A DNA stretch of 64,000 bases from an uncultured Gemmatimonadales bacterium (GTDB lineage Bacteria > Gemmatimonadota > Gemmatimonadetes > Gemmatimonadales > GWC2-71-9), in the NCBI GenBank assembly GCA_963812085.1, contig CAWETL010000003.1, forward strand, positions 346,642 through 410,641, read 5' to 3'. A model generated the notes under the pieces. The model was not told the origin of the DNA. It did not search any database and saw only the letters and a list, made by a program, of their open reading frames with translations. Shown one piece after another: positions 21,861 through 27,986 of this stretch; position 1 is the first letter of the stretch, and each line of letters opens with the position of its first letter. The translations under genes were made by a program, and so were the position numbers.

Positions 21861-21918
21861 GCGAAGGAGCCGCGGGGCGGGTAGACCAGAGCGGGGATCT
21901 CGAGTACATTCGTCGCGA

Positions 21919-22302
21919 ATGAACGGCACGAGCGTCTGGTCCCGGTTCCTCTCGGGGGCGTTGGCGATCTGGTTCGGCCTTGTGATGGCCGCACCAGTCG
22001 TGCTGCACAGCTGTCCCCAGGCGCTGGCCAGCCGGAGTTCGTCGGCCCCGATGGCGATGCCGGATCACCACGGCTCGCATCATTCGTCCATGCCGAACGA
22101 CCGGGCACCGAAGGACTGCACCTGCCTCGGCCTCTGCAGGGGGCCGGCTCCGGCGGTGCTGCCGCAGGCCGCGGTCGGACCGATCGCCGTCCTCCTGCCG
22201 GTGGCCGCCGGCCCCGCGGCAGTCGCGATGCCGGTGTCGCCCGCCGCGCTCCCTGAACACAACCAGCCATTCGCCACCGCACCACCCCTTCCGCAGGCCT
22301 GA
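21919..22302 (+). CDS. Putative metal-sensing leader / arrest peptide (DUF2946/CruR/CutF-like)
   Basis: TM/signal, HSCP, His/Met-rich tract, CTCLGLC, Pro/Ala linker, C-terminal PFATAPP; upstream of a TonB receptor. Confidence 0.65.
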   Translation: MNGTSVWSRFLSGALAIWFGLVMAAPVVLHSCPQALASRSSSAPMAMPDHHGSHHSSMPNDRAPKDCTCLGLCRGPAPAVLPQAAVGPIAVLLPVAAGPAAVAMPVSPAALPEHNQPFATAPPLPQA

Positions 22303-22325
22303 TTCCCGCGCCACGGCGCGGAATC
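22301..22325 (+). promoter_or_regulatory. Hairpin overlapping the uORF stop codon
   Basis: gattcccgcgc-cacg-gcgcggaatc (one bulged C). Confidence 0.55.
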
Positions 22326-22460
22326 GCAATCACCCCACATAGCTGGAACACCGCGTCCCCGGGGCCTTGTCCCCGGGCCGCCCGACATTCTTAGTCCTCA
22401 GGCACGCCGGCCCCCGTTGGGGGCGCGCGGGTGTGCCCTGGGGCGGAAATCCACTGACTG

Positions 22461-24552
22461 ATGGCCCCAGCAGGTCCATCGAGCTTCACGCCACGCGTCA
22501 CGCGAACCCTCATTCGCGCGCTCTGGCTCTGCTGCTGCCTCGCGGCCGGCGCAGCCGTGGCCGCCGAGGCGCAGGCCGGGGCCAGGCCCGACTCCGCGAA
22601 GGCCAAGGTGACGGTGCTGTCGCCAGTGACCGTGACGGGCAGGCGGGAGCTCGCCGTCGCCCCCCCGGTGTCCACGATCGAGGTGACGCCGGAGGTGATG
22701 CAGCGGGCGCCGGCCTCGAACCCGTACGACCTCATCGGCCGGGCGGCCGGGATCGAGGTGCACCAGCAGGGACAGGGGCCGGGATTCGCTTCGGACGTCG
22801 TCATCGGCGGCTTCACCTCCGACCATTCCTCCGACGTGCTGCTCGTGCTCGATGGCGTCCCGATCAACTTGCCGATCCACGGGCACGTCGAGGGCTACGC
22901 CGACTGGAGTATCCTGTCGCCGGGGGCCATCAGCGCCACCCGGGTGATCCACGGCCCGGCCAGTCCGCTGTACGGGGATTTTTCGATCGGCGGGGTGATC
23001 GAGATGTACACCGGCGCCGATGCGAACGGACCGACCGCCTCGCTCGGCGTGACGAGCTTCGGCGACGTCCGCGGCTGGGTTTCCACCGGATTCCAGCACC
23101 CGAACGGCGGGGGGCTCGCCTCGCTCGCGCTCCAGCGGGAACAGGGGTGGCGTGACAACGCCGACTATTTCCTCGGCACCGGCGTGCTGCGCGGATGGCG
23201 GGCGGTCGGCACGGGGCGGATCGAGGGCGGATTCTACGCCTACGGCTCCGACTGGAATTCGCCTGGGTACGTGTCGGTCGCCGATTACAACCAGGGGCAT
23301 CTGACCGGCGCCACCGACACCACCGATGGCGGTGATGCACATCGCTACATCGCCAACCTGCGGTACGGCGCACCGCTCGCGGCCCGGACCACCCTGCAGG
23401 CGCAGGTGTGGGGTCAGCTCGGACACTCGACGGTGTTCCTGACCATTCCGGAAGACGGGGTGCTCGACCAGACCGGCGAACACGACGACCGGAGCGCGCT
23501 CGGATTCCAGGCCGAGGTCAATCGCGCCACGGACGCTGGTGAGTTCACCATCGGAATGAGCGGCAGGGCGGACTGGACGACGTACACGCTCGACCGGACC
23601 GAGGAGCGCGTCACGCTGGCGCCGCGCCAGGGCAACGACGGGCGCTACCAGGCCATCGGTGCATTCGCCCGCTGGCGCGGCATGCTGGGCTCGCACCTGC
23701 TGTACGACCTCGGGCTCCGCGCCGACGAGGTTCGCTATCAGAGCCTCGACAAACTCGACTCGCTGGCGACGTGGCAGGAGGCGACCGATCCGATGGTGAG
23801 CCCCAAGCTCGGGGCGCGCTACATCCTGTCGGATCGCGTGGTCCTGCTCGGGTCGCTGGCGCGCGGGTTCCGCGGCCCGGTCGGCGTGATCGCCGACCCA
23901 GGGCCTTCCACTGGTGACCGCCTGGGCGGGAGAGCTCGGGGCCCAGTATGCCGCCGGGCCGGTGCAACTGGGGCTGTCGTTCTTCCAGTTCAACGTGGCC
24001 AACGAACGGGTCAGGGACCCGGTCACCCTCGAGATCGTCGACGCGGGAACCAGTCGCCGCCGGGGGGCCACGCTCAACGCCACCTGGCGCCTGGGTCATC
24101 ACCTCTCGCTGCTGGCGGCCGGCACCGTCAACGACGCCACGGTGACTGGCATCGCTCAGACGGCGAACGTGTCGCTCGACCGCGGCGCCATCCGCCCGCC
24201 GCGGCCGAGTTTTCACGATGTGCCGCTCGAGCCCGGCGACCCGGTCCCCGGTGTGTCGAAGTATTTCGGCCGGATCGGCGCCGAGTACATCGTGCGGACG
24301 GGCCTCTCCGGGTACGGCCTGGTGCGGTTCACCGGGCCCTACACCCCCATCGGCGAGCCGACCATCACGACACAGCCCTATGCGGTCGTCGATGCCGGCG
24401 CGTCCTTCGGGCTCGGGCTGACCACGAGCCTCGACGTGGACCTGCTGAACATCACGGACGCGAAATACCCGGAGCTCCGCGCCTCCGGCTACATCAACCC
24501 CGGCGCACCCCGCAGCGTGCTGGTATCGGTGCGCCTCACCCGCCCGAATTGA
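22461..24552 (+). CDS. TonB-dependent receptor with a +1 frameshift near 23901 (sequencing error or pseudogene)
   Basis: Plug GFTSDHSSDV...DGVPINLPIHGHVEGYAD; SPKLGARY; barrel continues in frame 23914..24552 (NITD.KY...PGAPRSV.V.VR); removing one G of GGG 23901-3 restores a 696-aa protein. Confidence 0.82.
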
Positions 24553-24590
24553 ATCCCTGGCAAGCCAAACCCATCCAAGGAGATGCACTC

Positions 24591-25034
24591 ATGATGTTCC
24601 TGCACGGAAGCCGCGCTCTGGCGCGCCTGTCAGTGGTCCCGGCACTCGCCCTGGCCCTCGCGACGGGTGCCTGCAGCAGCAACGAGACTGGCCCGGGCCC
24701 TGACGCGCACGTGCCCACGTCCGCCAAGCTGTTCGTGAATGGCGCCGACGTGACGGCAAACCTGATCCTGCCCGCCGGCGCCACCACGCGAGTCCAGATC
24801 AAGTTCTACCTTGCCGACGGGTCGGAAGAGACGACGATCGAGACGACGCATTTTTCGTCGCTCACCTTTACGCCGACGGTACTCGCGACACCGGCGGGCG
24901 TGACCGACCACCGCTTCCAGTGGGATGTGACCGCGCAGGGCGCAGCCGGCACGGGCACTGTCATGGTCGGATTCGGGCATGACGACCTGGCCGATGAAGA
25001 CAGCTTCGGTCCGTTCCCCGTCACCGTGCAGTAG
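24591..25034 (+). CDS. Small His-containing lipoprotein
   Basis: AAGGAG SD; lipobox LATGA-C; GFGHDD near the C-terminus. Confidence 0.75.
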   Translation: MMFLHGSRALARLSVVPALALALATGACSSNETGPGPDAHVPTSAKLFVNGADVTANLILPAGATTRVQIKFYLADGSEETTIETTHFSSLTFTPTVLATPAGVTDHRFQWDVTAQGAAGTGTVMVGFGHDDLADEDSFGPFPVTVQ

Positions 25035-25051
25035 CCCCCGTAACCACGTGA

Positions 25052-25085
25052 GGGCCCGGGGCCGCCCTGGCGGCTCCCGGGGCCC
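25052..25085 (+). terminator. GC-rich hairpin after the TonB receptor operon
   Basis: gggcccggggccgcc / ggcggctcccggggccc imperfect stem. Confidence 0.4.
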
Positions 25086-25175
25086 CCTGACGGCACGGTT
25101 GCGCTTTCGTAGGGAACTGATGCAAGTTCGGCGGTTCCCGGAGTGCCACGCCGTACCCTGATCGAGGCCAGTCCC

Positions 25176-27986
25176 ATGCGATGCGTTGAATTCCGCCGGT
25201 CACCCGTGGTCCTGCTCCTCTTCCTCCTGGCGTTCGCGGCTCCGGCCGCCGGCCAGCAGCCGGCAACCAAGCCGGCGCGCCCAGCCCGCGCTGCGACGAC
25301 TGCCCCGAAGGCGGTCAAGGTCACGAGCGTCGAGGGGATCACCGAATACCGGCTGCCCAACGGGCTCCAAGTCCTCCTGTTGCCCGACCAGACCAAGCCG
25401 ATCGCCACGGTGAACATCACCTACCTGGTGGGTTCTCGGTACGAGGGCTACGGTGAGACGGGAATGGCGCACCTCCTCGAGCACCTGCTGTTCAAGGGGT
25501 CCACGCAGCACCCGAAGATCGGCGAGGAGATGACCGCCCACGGCGCCGACTTCAACGGCACCACCTGGTACGACCGCACCAACTATTTCGAGTCGTTTCC
25601 GGCCACCCCCGCCAACCTCGACTGGGCCCTGCAGCTCGAGGCCGACCGGATGGTGCACTCCTTCATCGCCAAGGCCGACCTCGAATCCGAGATGACGGTG
25701 GTGCGAAACGAATTCGAGATGGGGGAGAACGACCCGGGGAGCATCCTGGAGGAACGCCTGTTCTCCACGGCGTACCTCTGGCACAACTACGGCCACTCGA
25801 CGATCGGCGCGCGCTCGGACATCGAGCTGGTGCCGATCGGGCGGTTGCAGGACTTCTACCGGAAGTACTATCAGCCGGACAACTCGATGCTCGTCGTGGC
25901 GGGGAAGTTCGATGAGGCCGCGACGCTCAAGCGTATCGAGCAGCTCTTCGGCCCGATCCCGCGGCCGAACCGGGACGGCGCGAATCACCTCTGGGGCACC
26001 TATACCGTGGAGCCGGTCCAGGACGGCGAGCGCACGGTGACCCTGCGCCGGGTGGGGGACGAGCAGGTGATCCTCGCCGGGTTCCACATCCCGGCGGGAT
26101 CCGACCCGGATTTCGCCCCGATCAACGTCCTCACGCAGGTCCTCGGCTCGGCCCCGAGCGGGAGGCTCTACCAGGCGCTTGTCGAGCCCAAGCTGGCGGC
26201 CCGGGTCTGGTCATCCGCATACCAGCTCTACCAGCCCAGCATGCTCCTCGTGGGCGCCCAACTCCGCACGGAGGACACCCTCGCGGTCGCCCAGGCGGCC
26301 CTGCTCGCCGCGCTCGACTCGGTGACCACCCGGCCGCCGACCGACGAGGAAGTGGCCCGTGCCAAGCAGACCATCCTCAAGAACATCGACCTGAGCCTGA
26401 CCCAGACCGACCGGGTGGGCATCGCGCTGAGCGAGTGGGCCTCGCGCGGCGACTGGCGGCTCATCTTCATCAATCGCGACCGCGTCCGGGCCGTGACGCC
26501 CGCCGACGTGCAGCGGGTGGCCCAGGCGTACATCAAGCCGAGCAACCGGACGATGGGGGTCTTCGTCCCGACCCCGAAGCCCGATCGCGCCGAGATCCCG
26601 CCGCTTCCCGACATCGCGGCGCTGGTCAAGGACTACAAGGGCGACACCACGATGACCCTCGGGGAGGCCTTCGACGCCTCGCCGGCCAACATCGACGCCC
26701 GCACGGCGCGCAGTGCGCTCCCCAGCGGGATGAAGGTGGCGCTGCTCCCCAAGGCCACGCGGGGCCAGACGGTCAACGCCACGATCCAGCTCCACTTCGG
26801 CACCGAGTCCGCCCTGAACGGCCGGGCCACGGCGGCGTCGCTGGCCGGAGCGATGCTGATGCGCGGCACCACCGCGCACACCCGACAGCAGCTCAAGGAC
26901 GAGTTCGATCGCCTGAAGGCCCAGGTCAGCGTGTTCGGCACTGCGGAGGGCGCCACGGTGTCCATCTCGACCGTGCGCGCCAACTTCCCGGCGGTCCTCC
27001 GCCTCGCGGGCGAGGTGCTTCGCCAGCCGAGCTTCGATCCGGCGGAGTTCGCGACCCTGCAGCGCGAGATGCTGGCGCGCCTGGAATCACAACGGACCGA
27101 TCCGATCCCGCTCGCGCAGAACGCGCTGTCGAGGGCGATGCAGATCTACCCGCCGGGGCATCCCCGCTATGTCCCGACGATCGACGAATCGATCGCCGAG
27201 ACGAAGGCCGCGACGGTGGATGATGCCAAGCGGTTCTGGGTGGAGTTCTACGGGGTCGGCGCCGGGGAAGTGGCGATCGTGGGCGATTTCGACCCGGCGG
27301 AGGTCTCGCCGGTCGTGGCGGAGTTGTTCGGAACCTGGAAGAGCCCGGCCGCGTACGCGCGGATTCCCGACCGGTACAGCGACAAGCCCGCGGTGACCGA
27401 GCAGATCGAAACGCCAGACAAGGCCAACGCGATCATGCTGGCGGCCACCAGCCTTCGGCTGGGCGAGGACGATCCCGGCTTTCCCGCGATGGCGATCGGA
27501 GACTACATCTACGGCGGGTCGGCGTTCGACTCCCGGCTGATGATGCGCATCCGGCAGAAGGAGGGACTCAGCTACGGGGTCGGGAGCGCGCTCCGCGCGA
27601 GCCCGCTGGACCAGGCCGGACGGCTGTTCGTCTACGCCATCTCCGCGCCCGAGAACACCTCGAAAGTGGTCACGGCCTTTCATGAGGTGACCGATTCGGC
27701 GGTGTCCGGCGGCTTCACGCCGGCCGAGGTGACGAAGGGCAAGGCCGGCTACCTGCAGCAGCGCCAGCTGGCACGGGCGGACGACGGGAGTCTCGTCGAT
27801 GAGTTGGCGGAGGAGCTCTACCTGGGCCGGACCATGGCGTGGGACGCCAAGCTGGAGCAGGCCATCGGGGCCCTCACCCCGGAGCAGGTGAGCACCGGCT
27901 TCCGCAGCTTCGTGGATCCCTCGAGGATCACCGTGATCACCGCGGGGGATTTCGCGAAGGGGAAGGCGGCCCCGGCCCAGCCGTAG
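25176..27986 (+). CDS. M16 (pitrilysin/PqqL-like) zinc peptidase, exported
   Basis: Y.LPNGL.VLL; GMAHLLEHLLFKGS (HxxEH); NGTT.YDRTNY; RL...IR.KEGLSYGV. Confidence 0.92.
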   Translation: MRCVEFRRSPVVLLLFLLAFAAPAAGQQPATKPARPARAATTAPKAVKVTSVEGITEYRLPNGLQVLLLPDQTKPIATVNITYLVGSRYEGYGETGMAHLLEHLLFKGSTQHPKIGEEMTAHGADFNGTTWYDRTNYFESFPATPANLDWALQLEADRMVHSFIAKADLESEMTVVRNEFEMGENDPGSILEERLFSTAYLWHNYGHSTIGARSDIELVPIGRLQDFYRKYYQPDNSMLVVAGKFDEAATLKRIEQLFGPIPRPNRDGANHLWGTYTVEPVQDGERTVTLRRVGDEQVILAGFHIPAGSDPDFAPINVLTQVLGSAPSGRLYQALVEPKLAARVWSSAYQLYQPSMLLVGAQLRTEDTLAVAQAALLAALDSVTTRPPTDEEVARAKQTILKNIDLSLTQTDRVGIALSEWASRGDWRLIFINRDRVRAVTPADVQRVAQAYIKPSNRTMGVFVPTPKPDRAEIPPLPDIAALVKDYKGDTTMTLGEAFDASPANIDARTARSALPSGMKVALLPKATRGQTVNATIQLHFGTESALNGRATAASLAGAMLMRGTTAHTRQQLKDEFDRLKAQVSVFGTAEGATVSISTVRANFPAVLRLAGEVLRQPSFDPAEFATLQREMLARLESQRTDPIPLAQNALSRAMQIYPPGHPRYVPTIDESIAETKAATVDDAKRFWVEFYGVGAGEVAIVGDFDPAEVSPVVAELFGTWKSPAAYARIPDRYSDKPAVTEQIETPDKANAIMLAATSLRLGEDDPGFPAMAIGDYIYGGSAFDSRLMMRIRQKEGLSYGVGSALRASPLDQAGRLFVYAISAPENTSKVVTAFHEVTDSAVSGGFTPAEVTKGKAGYLQQRQLARADDGSLVDELAEELYLGRTMAWDAKLEQAIGALTPEQVSTGFRSFVDPSRITVITAGDFAKGKAAPAQP

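Follow-up and report, generated by a model that had tools for sequence, protein, structure and literature searches.

A candidate metal-responsive nascent-peptide switch with an arginine-less proline motif ahead of a TonB-dependent receptor gene in Gemmatimonadota

A stretch of 64,000 nucleotides (nt) from an uncultured Gemmatimonadales bacterium (assembly GCA_963812085.1, contig CAWETL010000003.1, positions 346,642 to 410,641), termed the window, carries a small open reading frame (ORF) of 127 amino acids (aa) directly ahead of a TonB-dependent receptor gene and a lipoprotein gene. On balance, this leader ORF is likely to be a cis-acting, metal-responsive nascent-peptide switch for the receptor and lipoprotein genes, of the kind represented by CruR of Bordetella pertussis and CutF of Rhodobacter capsulatus. 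The switch is probably copper-responsive, as analogy with its relatives suggests. That it acts specifically through Rho is possible, although this part of the proposal falls somewhat short of probable. The window has a G+C content of 70.2%, and the source genome consists of 3.28 Mb in 18 contigs.

At the translated amino acid level, the leader ORF has an ordered series of motifs. A hydrophobic stretch (residues 10–29) follows Arg9 and leads into an HxCP motif (H30-S-C32-P33). Then come a His/Met tract (MAMPDHHGSHHSSM, residues 45–58), a Cys cluster of the form CxCxxxC (C67-T-C69-LGL-C73), presumed from its sequence to be the metal-binding site of the leader peptide, and an Ala/Pro-rich spacer of fixed length (40 residues, 74–113). 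The C-terminal end reads H114-x-x-PFATAPP, with PFATAPP at residues 117–123, and is followed by LPQA and the TGA stop. An AlphaFold model based on 150 sequences has a helix at residues 6–29 with a predicted local distance difference test score (pLDDT) of 84–95 and a short helix at 33–40, followed by coil; overall, the pLDDT is 73.5 and the predicted template modelling score 0.33. The model points to an N-terminal helix or signal anchor, which may be an export signal or a membrane segment with its N-terminus in and its C-terminus out.

The coding signature is clear. G+C at the three codon positions is 0.70/0.60/0.85 and resembles that of neighbouring genes. Third-position G+C remains at 0.83–0.90 throughout the length of the ORF, and is 0.70 and 0.61 in the two alternative frames. 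A word-indexed search yields 16 homologous proteins of 113–129 aa with 43–91% identity. A non-coding leader RNA was considered and is excluded by the third-position G+C and by conservation at the amino acid level. Residues invariant among the 16 sequences include W18, F19, G20, L21, H30, C32, P33 and H51 in the N-terminal half, and C67, C69, C73, H114 and P117-x-A-T-A-P-P-L124 in the C-terminal half. An earlier reading of the window from its letters alone, here termed the sequence-only reading, had described a 127-aa ORF with TACATT 8 nt upstream and this same order of signal or membrane segment, HxCP, His/Met tract, CxCxxxC, Pro/Ala spacer and PFATAPP. It had also pointed to a hairpin over the stop codon with more hairpins behind it, to a TonB receptor without a Shine–Dalgarno (SD) sequence, and to a His-containing lipoprotein. 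All of these were recovered where they had been placed, and the third-position G+C and homologues now support the coding assignment.

Among the strongest signatures of constraint is a distance. The leader ORF was compared at 14 loci of the genus, i.e. the window and 13 others, with L009 and L010 nearly identical. In all 14, the first Cys of CxC lies 54 residues from PP, the last Cys lies 46 residues from the four-residue motif that ends in PP, and the tail after PP has exactly 4 residues. The 40-residue spacer is the least conserved region of the genus alignment, with a mean pairwise identity of 29%, and has no gap columns; the His tract has gaps in 8 of 38 columns. The sequence-only reading had proposed to test conservation of CxCxxxC, spacer length and PF(A)xxPP upstream of homologous receptors, and at the genus loci the Cys residues, the spacer length and the ATAPP residues are conserved. 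A six-frame search of 61 related genomes gives a leader ORF match in 25, including 14 of the 16 other genomes of the same genus. At each of the 13 genus loci that were retrieved, the receptor gene follows directly downstream in the same orientation, with 68–73% identity as against only 37–49% for the leader ORF. The pair is also retained at four more distant loci (L015, L017, L018 and L020), and the order upstream ORF, receptor, lipoprotein and M16 peptidase is found at all nine genus loci with 4.5-kb flanks.

The same spacing rule extends to a much larger family. A search of 1.84 billion representatives with a profile built from 18 sequences gives 1,700 matches at E ≤ 0.001, of which 478 have E ≤ 1e-10. 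Family-wide motif figures are taken from the best 150 of the 1,700 matches, 149 of which are new and most of which align almost end to end. PP lies within eight residues of the C-terminus in 146 of the 149 new relatives. The four-residue motif among these 146 is NGPP in 78, TAPP in 36, NAPP in eight and RGPP in one, and RAPP is absent; the spacing from last Cys to motif is 43–47 residues in 139 of them. In the 140 of 149 relatives with all three motifs, the distance from CxC to PP has a median of 55 residues, a standard deviation of 0.9 and a range of 52–57; the distance from HxC to CxC in the same 140 has a standard deviation of 14.6 and a range of 2–124. Cysteine patterns in the 149 relatives include CxCxxxC (67) and CxCxxxCC (43). 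C67 and C69 are invariant in the 150 aligned sequences, and C73 is kept in at least 90%.

Among 151 sampled Gemmatimonadota genomes, the family is present in 65 (one of them an unpublished genome, G101), which represent 33 of 82 genera, with up to four matches per genome. The sequence-only reading had proposed a lineage-specific variant with TAPP as its motif. In the narrow sense this does not hold: the family numbers 1,700 representatives, is spread through the phylum, and has NGPP more often than TAPP. Closely spaced family members are found at G031:C205:52972-53862, G028:C25:8496-12271, G164:C1:3633713-3634703 and G183:C93:4762-6131. One of these close pairs is divergent, each member facing its own receptor.

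At the level of transcription, the sequence upstream of the leader ORF suggests an unusual start. A -10-like TACATT ends 8 nt ahead of the ATG at 21919, which implies a leaderless or nearly leaderless mRNA. The motif TA(C/G)ATT is found exactly 8 nt ahead of the ATG at all 14 genus loci, most of which also show T(G/A)GAC 17 nt upstream of this box. The ATG itself is 29 codons ahead of HxC at 13 of the 14 loci and 30 codons ahead at the remaining one. Outside the genus, TANNNT ends 5–10 nt before an in-frame ATG, with an N-terminus of the 'MRR...' type, at 14 of 22 other family loci; the background for this spacing in the same 22 loci is 38 of 1,709 ATGs. A generic consensus scan called no promoter-like sites, and the promoter-like pair ahead of the leader ORF matches 8 of 12 consensus positions. 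In contigs from related populations, the distance between the -10 box and the ATG (21911–21918) is 7 nt and not 8, with the variant at one of the places 21915–21918.

Selection at the proline motif appears to act on translation as well as on the peptide. T120, A121, P122 and P123 are invariant across the genus and their codons vary synonymously, thus selection is on the peptide. P122 is encoded by the rare CCA in the window. PP begins with CCT or CCA at 11 of 13 genus loci and at 14 of 22 other family loci, as against 48 of 302 other Pro codons in the latter; since the loci are related, these counts are not independent. Across 719 long ORFs of the source genome, CCT and CCA together account for 8.8% of Pro codons, and the genome has one tRNA-Pro each with anticodon CGG, GGG and UGG. 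A codon bias at a single synonymous site is hard to explain by the function of a finished protein.

This raises the question of whether the ORF nevertheless encodes a stable small membrane-anchored metal-binding protein, such as a chaperone or partner of the receptor, with PFATAPP serving for protein binding and with no regulation in cis. The many conserved His and Cys residues are in keeping with such a role, as are pairwise identities in the genus alignment of 63% for the hydrophobic segment and 90% for HxCP. The gene is also always beside a receptor gene and, in the genus, beside a lipoprotein gene with three conserved His. This explanation is unlikely, however, as the spacer keeps its length and not its sequence, a binding motif would not be expected to show selection for a rare codon where PP begins, and no fold is modelled beyond the N-terminal helices. 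In addition, neither of the architectural relatives, CruR and CutF, is detectable as a protein in cells according to the published accounts (PMC9426467; PMC12914433; PMC9973294; 10.1101/2025.02.05.636593). A role of the finished protein and regulation in cis are compatible and do not exclude each other.

Among the closest described systems is that of CruR (Bp2923), a DUF2946 protein whose gene is the first of cruR-bfrG(crtA)-bp2921 (PMC9426467; PMC12914433). As described there, CruR has 45 residues between CXXC and RAPP, a distance kept within 1–2 residues, and altered spacing breaks regulation; the cruR transcript starts 45 bp upstream, the spacer to the receptor gene is 162 nt in B. pertussis, and a region with more C than G (a C>G bubble) is described, to which the Rho-utilisation (rut) site was mapped. 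The window shares much of this architecture. The gene order opens with a small ORF for an exported, Cys-containing product, followed by a TonB-dependent receptor gene; xAPP stands 3–4 residues ahead of the stop, and the length from Cys motif to xAPP is conserved (46 residues here and, counted in a like manner, 45 in CruR). The spacer is similarly long (158 nt), the locus is high in G+C and has a C>G bubble that reaches from the 3′ end of the ORF into the spacer, and little structure is predicted for the protein, here one N-terminal helix and then coil. The differences from this description are that the motif is TAPP in the window and NGPP in most relatives instead of RAPP, that CxCxxxC with HxCP and a His tract takes the place of CXXC, and that the third gene encodes a His-bearing lipoprotein and not a PepSY_TM protein. 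The mRNA implied here is leaderless, unlike that of cruR, the receptor is not close in sequence to any solved receptor, and the leader protein lies below the Pfam threshold for DUF2946.

CutF provides a second comparison, and an Arg-less one. Its motif is EGPPP, its action depends on elongation factor P (EF-P), and sensing is by the nascent chain (PMC9973294; 10.1101/2025.02.05.636593). In these accounts copper induces a stall that switches on a detoxifying oxidase; the spacer is short, and a stem-loop over the SD of the next gene is unmasked in regulation. The leader ORF resembles CutF as described in having an export signal, a CxxxC (C69-x-x-x-C73) and an Arg-less C-terminal proline motif. 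It differs in having two prolines instead of PPP, a spacer of about 155 nt, and an importer rather than an oxidase downstream; an importer behind the leader ORF therefore calls for a logic opposite to that of CutF. In a published survey of CutF-like proteins, which distinguishes 29 sequence clusters, TonB-like proteins and PCuAC are some of the most frequent neighbours downstream (PMC9973294; 10.1101/2025.02.05.636593), and TonB receptor and PCuAC neighbours are found in the present family also. A further comparison is with CopL, a metal-binding regulatory protein that, according to the same sources, affects a downstream copper gene in cis only. Weak matches to the CopL family NF033807 are given by 34 of the 150 relatives, the best at E 1e-4, which is below the NCBIfam cut-off; the window protein has no such match at E ≤ 1, and its downstream gene is different.

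In the sequence-only reading, the ORF was a variant of the DUF2946-type upstream ORFs, with TAPP in place of RAPP and CxCxxxC in place of CxxC. The architecture, gene order and Cys-to-PP spacing match the CruR/CutF type; the Pfam threshold for DUF2946 is not reached. Among the 150 relatives, 36 match PF11162 (DUF2946) at E ≤ 0.1, all below threshold and collinear end to end; the best reaches 21.3 bits against a gathering threshold of 23.7, with residues 12–135 of 137 aligned to positions 4–117 of 117 of the model. In a protein-language search the nearest clusters are from Gemmatimonadota, and the cluster at rank 19 has PF11162 on 12% of its members. The DUF2946 CXXC is absent from the leader protein, whose CxCxxxC includes the CxxxC noted above, and Thr120 occupies the position of the Arg in RAPP, which is Asn in most relatives. 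Canonical DUF2946 leaders with CxxC...RAPP exist in the same phylum (L022–L030; six proteins, spacer 43–45 residues, tail 2–5), and canonical DUF2946 is over cut-off in only four of the 151 phylum genomes compared with 65 for the Arg-less family. We read the leader family, from its sequences, as a sister family just outside the PF11162 model and not as a member.

A weak DUF2946 match elsewhere in the source genome (contig C4, E 0.003) was rejected as spurious, and lies within a low-G+C radical S-adenosylmethionine (SAM)/SPASM cluster. This stretch (L021, G000:C4:512609-515794) stands out from the 70% G+C genome, encodes two radical-SAM/SPASM-like proteins of about 400 aa and a 90-aa ORF, and looks like a foreign peptide-maturation cluster. 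Among the papers listed by a literature search, none was found that links Gemmatimonadota with leaders of the present kind; the main text of the CutF paper does not contain 'Gemmatimon', and its supplements could list the family.

Copper is our best guess for the metal of the family, and at the window locus it is put forward by analogy; it is favoured over Ni or Zn because of the neighbour genes of relatives only. The immediate downstream gene was examined at 27 loci, three of 30 having given no clear ORF. It encodes a Plug domain at 22 (five of which belong to the genus, the window included), PCuAC at two, an OmpL-like porin at one, and no assigned family at two. Seventeen of 20 loci refetched with long flanks were usable, and 35 of 63 same-strand ORFs were scanned, leaving out receptors and short or overlapping frames. 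Copper genes are found at three of these 17 loci, two of which are the PCuAC loci of the 27-locus set. The first has SCO1 and CtaG behind the PCuAC gene, the second a PCuAC-cytochrome c fusion and a second PCuAC, and the third CopC-CopD behind the receptor. Other long-flank loci have DM13 with an extracytoplasmic function sigma/anti-sigma pair, or BNR proteins.

At the transcribed RNA level, the spacer between leader ORF and receptor gene has properties that could serve Rho. It is 152–158 nt long at 12 of 14 genus loci, 134 nt at L007 and 78 nt at L012. The best 60-nt segment of the C-rich, G-poor stretch contains 33 C and 10 G, and only 0.06% of source-genome segments of this length are as extreme. 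At all 13 genus loci C minus G over 60 nt is 20–26, matched by only 0.02–0.2% of source-genome segments, and in every case the segment either covers the ORF's final ~60 nt or comes just past the first hairpin. Rho is present: two matches to the Rho RNA-binding domain exceed the cut-off (G000:C13:28927-29148 and G000:C4:119053-119268), in open frames of 535 and 613 aa. A generic scan called no intrinsic terminator in the spacer, and its sole terminator-like site lies inside the receptor gene.

Three hairpins follow the proline codons (Table 1). Hairpin 1 has a counterpart of -14.6 to -21.8 kcal/mol at 12 of 13 genus loci, with z ≤ -2 at nine of these, and its GCGC core never varies. A ribosome reaches about 13–15 nt past the first base in its P site. 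Given the four-codon tail and this usual reach, the leading edge of a ribosome whose P site is occupied by P122 would come to lie at the foot of hairpin 1. An RNAalifold structure made of the hairpin 1 core and hairpins 2 and 3 has 89.6% of cells paired, compared with 40–46% when partners are slid; 14 of its 23 pairs change on both sides, which 0 of 500 shuffles reach. In hairpin 3 (helices 3–5), 11 of 13 pairs are changed on both sides, and its 3′ strand reaches a G-rich, SD-like stretch 16–22 nt ahead of the receptor ATG.

These structures allow a different mode of action, in which the pause affects translation as in CutF: the ribosome would remodel hairpins 1–3 and thereby free or mask the SD-like stretch, without Rho. 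The reach of the covarying hairpin 3 agrees with this, and so does the lack of a well-placed SD ahead of the receptor gene, the lipoprotein gene having AAGGAG 8 nt upstream; SD unmasking is also how CutF is described to operate. One difficulty is the length of the spacer. With about 155 nt in between, the receptor start region is out of reach for a ribosome that sits on the PP codons, and the CutF authors restrict stall-driven unfolding to short spacers (PMC9973294; 10.1101/2025.02.05.636593). Direct pairing of the stall codons with the receptor start region was tried and rejected: with RNAduplex and the last 39 nt of the leader ORF, z ranges from -2.79 to +1.91 over 15 loci and is below -2 at only one, so that the pairing does not exceed that of shuffled sequences. 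Where GGAG ahead of the receptor is best, the complementary CCUCC is lacking. A translational mode is therefore given a small probability.

The switch as proposed, acting through Rho, would operate as follows; that the leader peptide stalls and binds metal, which way the response runs and what part Rho plays are all inferred. As transcription would start at or next to the ATG, a ribosome would load once the 5′ end emerges and would trail the polymerase closely. The N-terminal helix would insert in the membrane with the C-terminus outward, so that HxCP and the His tract face the periplasm. Peptide-bond formation would slow at A121-P122-P123, and during this pause CxCxxxC would sit 49–55 residues back, just outside the exit tunnel. 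The paused ribosome would cover the C-rich, G-poor stretch, abut the stop-codon hairpin and block Rho loading, and the polymerase would read through the ~155-nt spacer into the receptor gene. Metal, most likely copper, on the nascent Cys/His sites would free the pause. The ribosome would then terminate, exposing C-rich RNA, and Rho would end transcription; the importer would therefore be off when metal is plentiful.

Several observations weigh against a switch of this kind. The window leader protein matches no Pfam or NCBIfam family at E ≤ 1, DUF2946 included, and a profile-profile comparison (hhalign) with the six canonical RAPP proteins of the phylum gives a probability of 0.8%, in a test limited by the small alignment. 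The 63% identity of the hydrophobic segment is unusual for a mere signal and leaves room for a finished-protein function. Pro, Ala and Thr codons account for part of the C-richness of the bubble. Taken as a whole, the spacer is no more stable than its shuffled versions (z 0.22) and was rejected as an unusually stable fold on this ground, with only local, conserved hairpins remaining. Among these, covariation in the extended stem of hairpin 1 is weak (78% of cells paired, reached by 50 of 500 shuffles), and a stop-adjacent hairpin is not family-wide, with z ≤ -2 at two of 22 other family loci. The covariation test of the RNAalifold structure as a whole favours its own structure, since the 12 related sequences tested are also those from which the structure was obtained.

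A further difficulty concerns the motif. Mutagenesis of ApcA, ApdA and ApdP is reported to have found the Arg of R-A-P irreplaceable, and AAPP or AGPP mutants of seven Streptomyces peptides lost arrest (PMC12992588). This Arg is absent from the window leader and from most relatives, so that a RAPP-like character of the motif cannot be taken for granted. With ApdA, ApdP, ApcA and SecM (RAGP), the leader ORF shares the form of a small secretory or membrane protein with (A/G)PP near its C-terminus, encoded upstream of a putative target gene, and TonB-related and copper-related downstream genes are reported for RAPP/RGPP peptides (PMC12992588). In addition to having no Arg, it differs from ApdA, ApdP and ApcA in its upstream H-x-x-P-F-A. 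Without Arg in the motif, any pause would therefore rest on other contacts or on a weaker polyproline pause. The invariant H-x-x-P-F-A residues are, by their conservation, candidates for replacement contacts. Alternatively, the family may make an EF-P-sensitive polyproline pause like that attributed to the GPPP of CutF. APP and GPP are strong EF-P-dependent pause motifs. A more specific proposal, tentative and rather doubtful at present, is that members of the family have a second arrest module that does not depend on Arg, namely H-x-x-P-F-A-(N/T)-(G/A)-P-P, which is read while the P site holds a rare CCU/CCA codon and is part of a leaderless mRNA that locks the first ribosome to the polymerase.

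Table 1. Features of the leader ORF locus, in positions of the window
Feature	Position	Strand	Details and evidence
Promoter-like pair	21882..21910	+	-35-like TAGACC 21882–21887, 17-nt spacer, -10-like TACATT 21905–21910; sequence, genus conservation
Leader ORF, 127 aa	21919..22302	+	ATG 21919, TGA 22300–22302; reading-frame, motif and conservation evidence
Cys cluster codons C67-x-C69-x-x-x-C73	22117..22137	+	C67/C69 invariance; contains CutF-type CxxxC
C-rich, G-poor stretch (C>G bubble), candidate Rho-utilisation region	22240..22357	+	last ~60 nt of ORF into spacer, broken by hairpin 1
H114-N-Q-P-F-A-T-A-P122-P123 codons, candidate arrest/pause module	22258..22287	+	invariant residues, rare P122 codon CCA
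Hairpin 1, stem includes last sense codon and TGA stop	22297..22327	+	-16.2 kcal/mol, z -2.24
Hairpin 2	22353..22381	+	-18.6 kcal/mol, z -1.45; helix 2 paired in 91.7% of cells
Hairpin 3, long composite helix	22379..22445	+	-38.3 kcal/mol, z -1.24
TonB-dependent receptor gene, split in this assembly	22461..24552	+	frame A 22461 to ~23900; frame B 23914–24552
Lipoprotein gene, 147 aa	24591..25034	+	lipobox Cys28; in 9/9 genus loci with long flanks
Strong hairpin after lipoprotein gene, likely 3′ end of unit	25039..25103	+	-43 kcal/mol, z -1.96

The receptor has a Plug domain (E 1.1e-16) and a TonB barrel domain, and contains the motifs DHSSD and PIHGHVEGY cited in the sequence-only reading; its gene has no canonical SD at the usual distance. 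The reading frame is interrupted by a +1 frameshift, an extra base near 23900 (within 23895–23915), where six orthologues are in frame. Contigs of all three public runs that cover the site, from three different studies, lack one base at 23900, and one of these contigs differs in only 3 other letters of 457; the contigs of a fourth run give no cover there. Among the runs listed as containing the locus, none is an RNA run. The break is probably an assembly error or rare variant because the contigs of other runs lack the extra base. A search of solved structures by sequence gave matches in the plug region only, with BtuB best (E 3.9e-10) and PhuR, Cir and ShuA also present; no copper receptor was matched among them.

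The lipoprotein has no assigned Pfam or NCBIfam family. With its 35 homologues it makes up a separate family, in which C28, H87 and H130 are invariant and H40 is near-invariant. It is modelled confidently as an Ig-like β-sandwich (pLDDT 84.4), and a fold search gave only generic Ig-like domain matches. Three conserved His on this modelled fold suggest that the lipoprotein may be a periplasmic metal-binding partner of the receptor. The hairpin behind its gene is not called by the terminator scan, as it has no T run. Across this hairpin, a 947-aa M16 peptidase gene (25143–27986) follows the lipoprotein gene at nine of nine genus loci. The pairing of a TonB receptor with a periplasmic M16 protease recalls FusA/FusC and YddB/PqqL.

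Methanobactin precursors are found beside TonB receptors, and the present neighbourhood could be read in a similar manner: the ORF would be the precursor of an exported Cys-containing metallophore that is re-imported via the receptor, with the M16 peptidase as processing enzyme. A small Cys/His-rich peptide gene does adjoin a TonB receptor gene, and the M16 gene lies two genes downstream at all nine genus loci just mentioned. However, the locus has no modifying enzymes, a 127-aa product with an N-terminal membrane helix is unlike known precursors, and the conserved parts span the whole length with a fixed ruler. The strong hairpin separates the lipoprotein and M16 genes, and no M16 match was found among the 35 downstream ORFs scanned from the 17 long-flank loci. 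A metallophore precursor is thus very improbable.

If the leader ORF works as a nascent-peptide switch, the copper-sensing principle of CruR and CutF would extend to a phylum that has been little studied and is for the most part uncultured, and to a motif that lacks the Arg now treated as essential for such arrest. The principle of the leader peptide is already known; the gain would be in breadth and mechanistic detail, and not in a new kind of system. Three features of the family would lend themselves to study: the exact 54–55-residue ruler, the rare codon at the presumed P site and the implied leaderless start. If the Arg-independent module is real, it would be a distinct class of metal-sensing arrest peptide rather than a degenerate RAPP, and Gemmatimonadota would control many TonB receptors by it. 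The finding would also help to annotate more than 1,000 'hypothetical' small proteins, and would suggest copper or copper chelates as substrates of the receptors.

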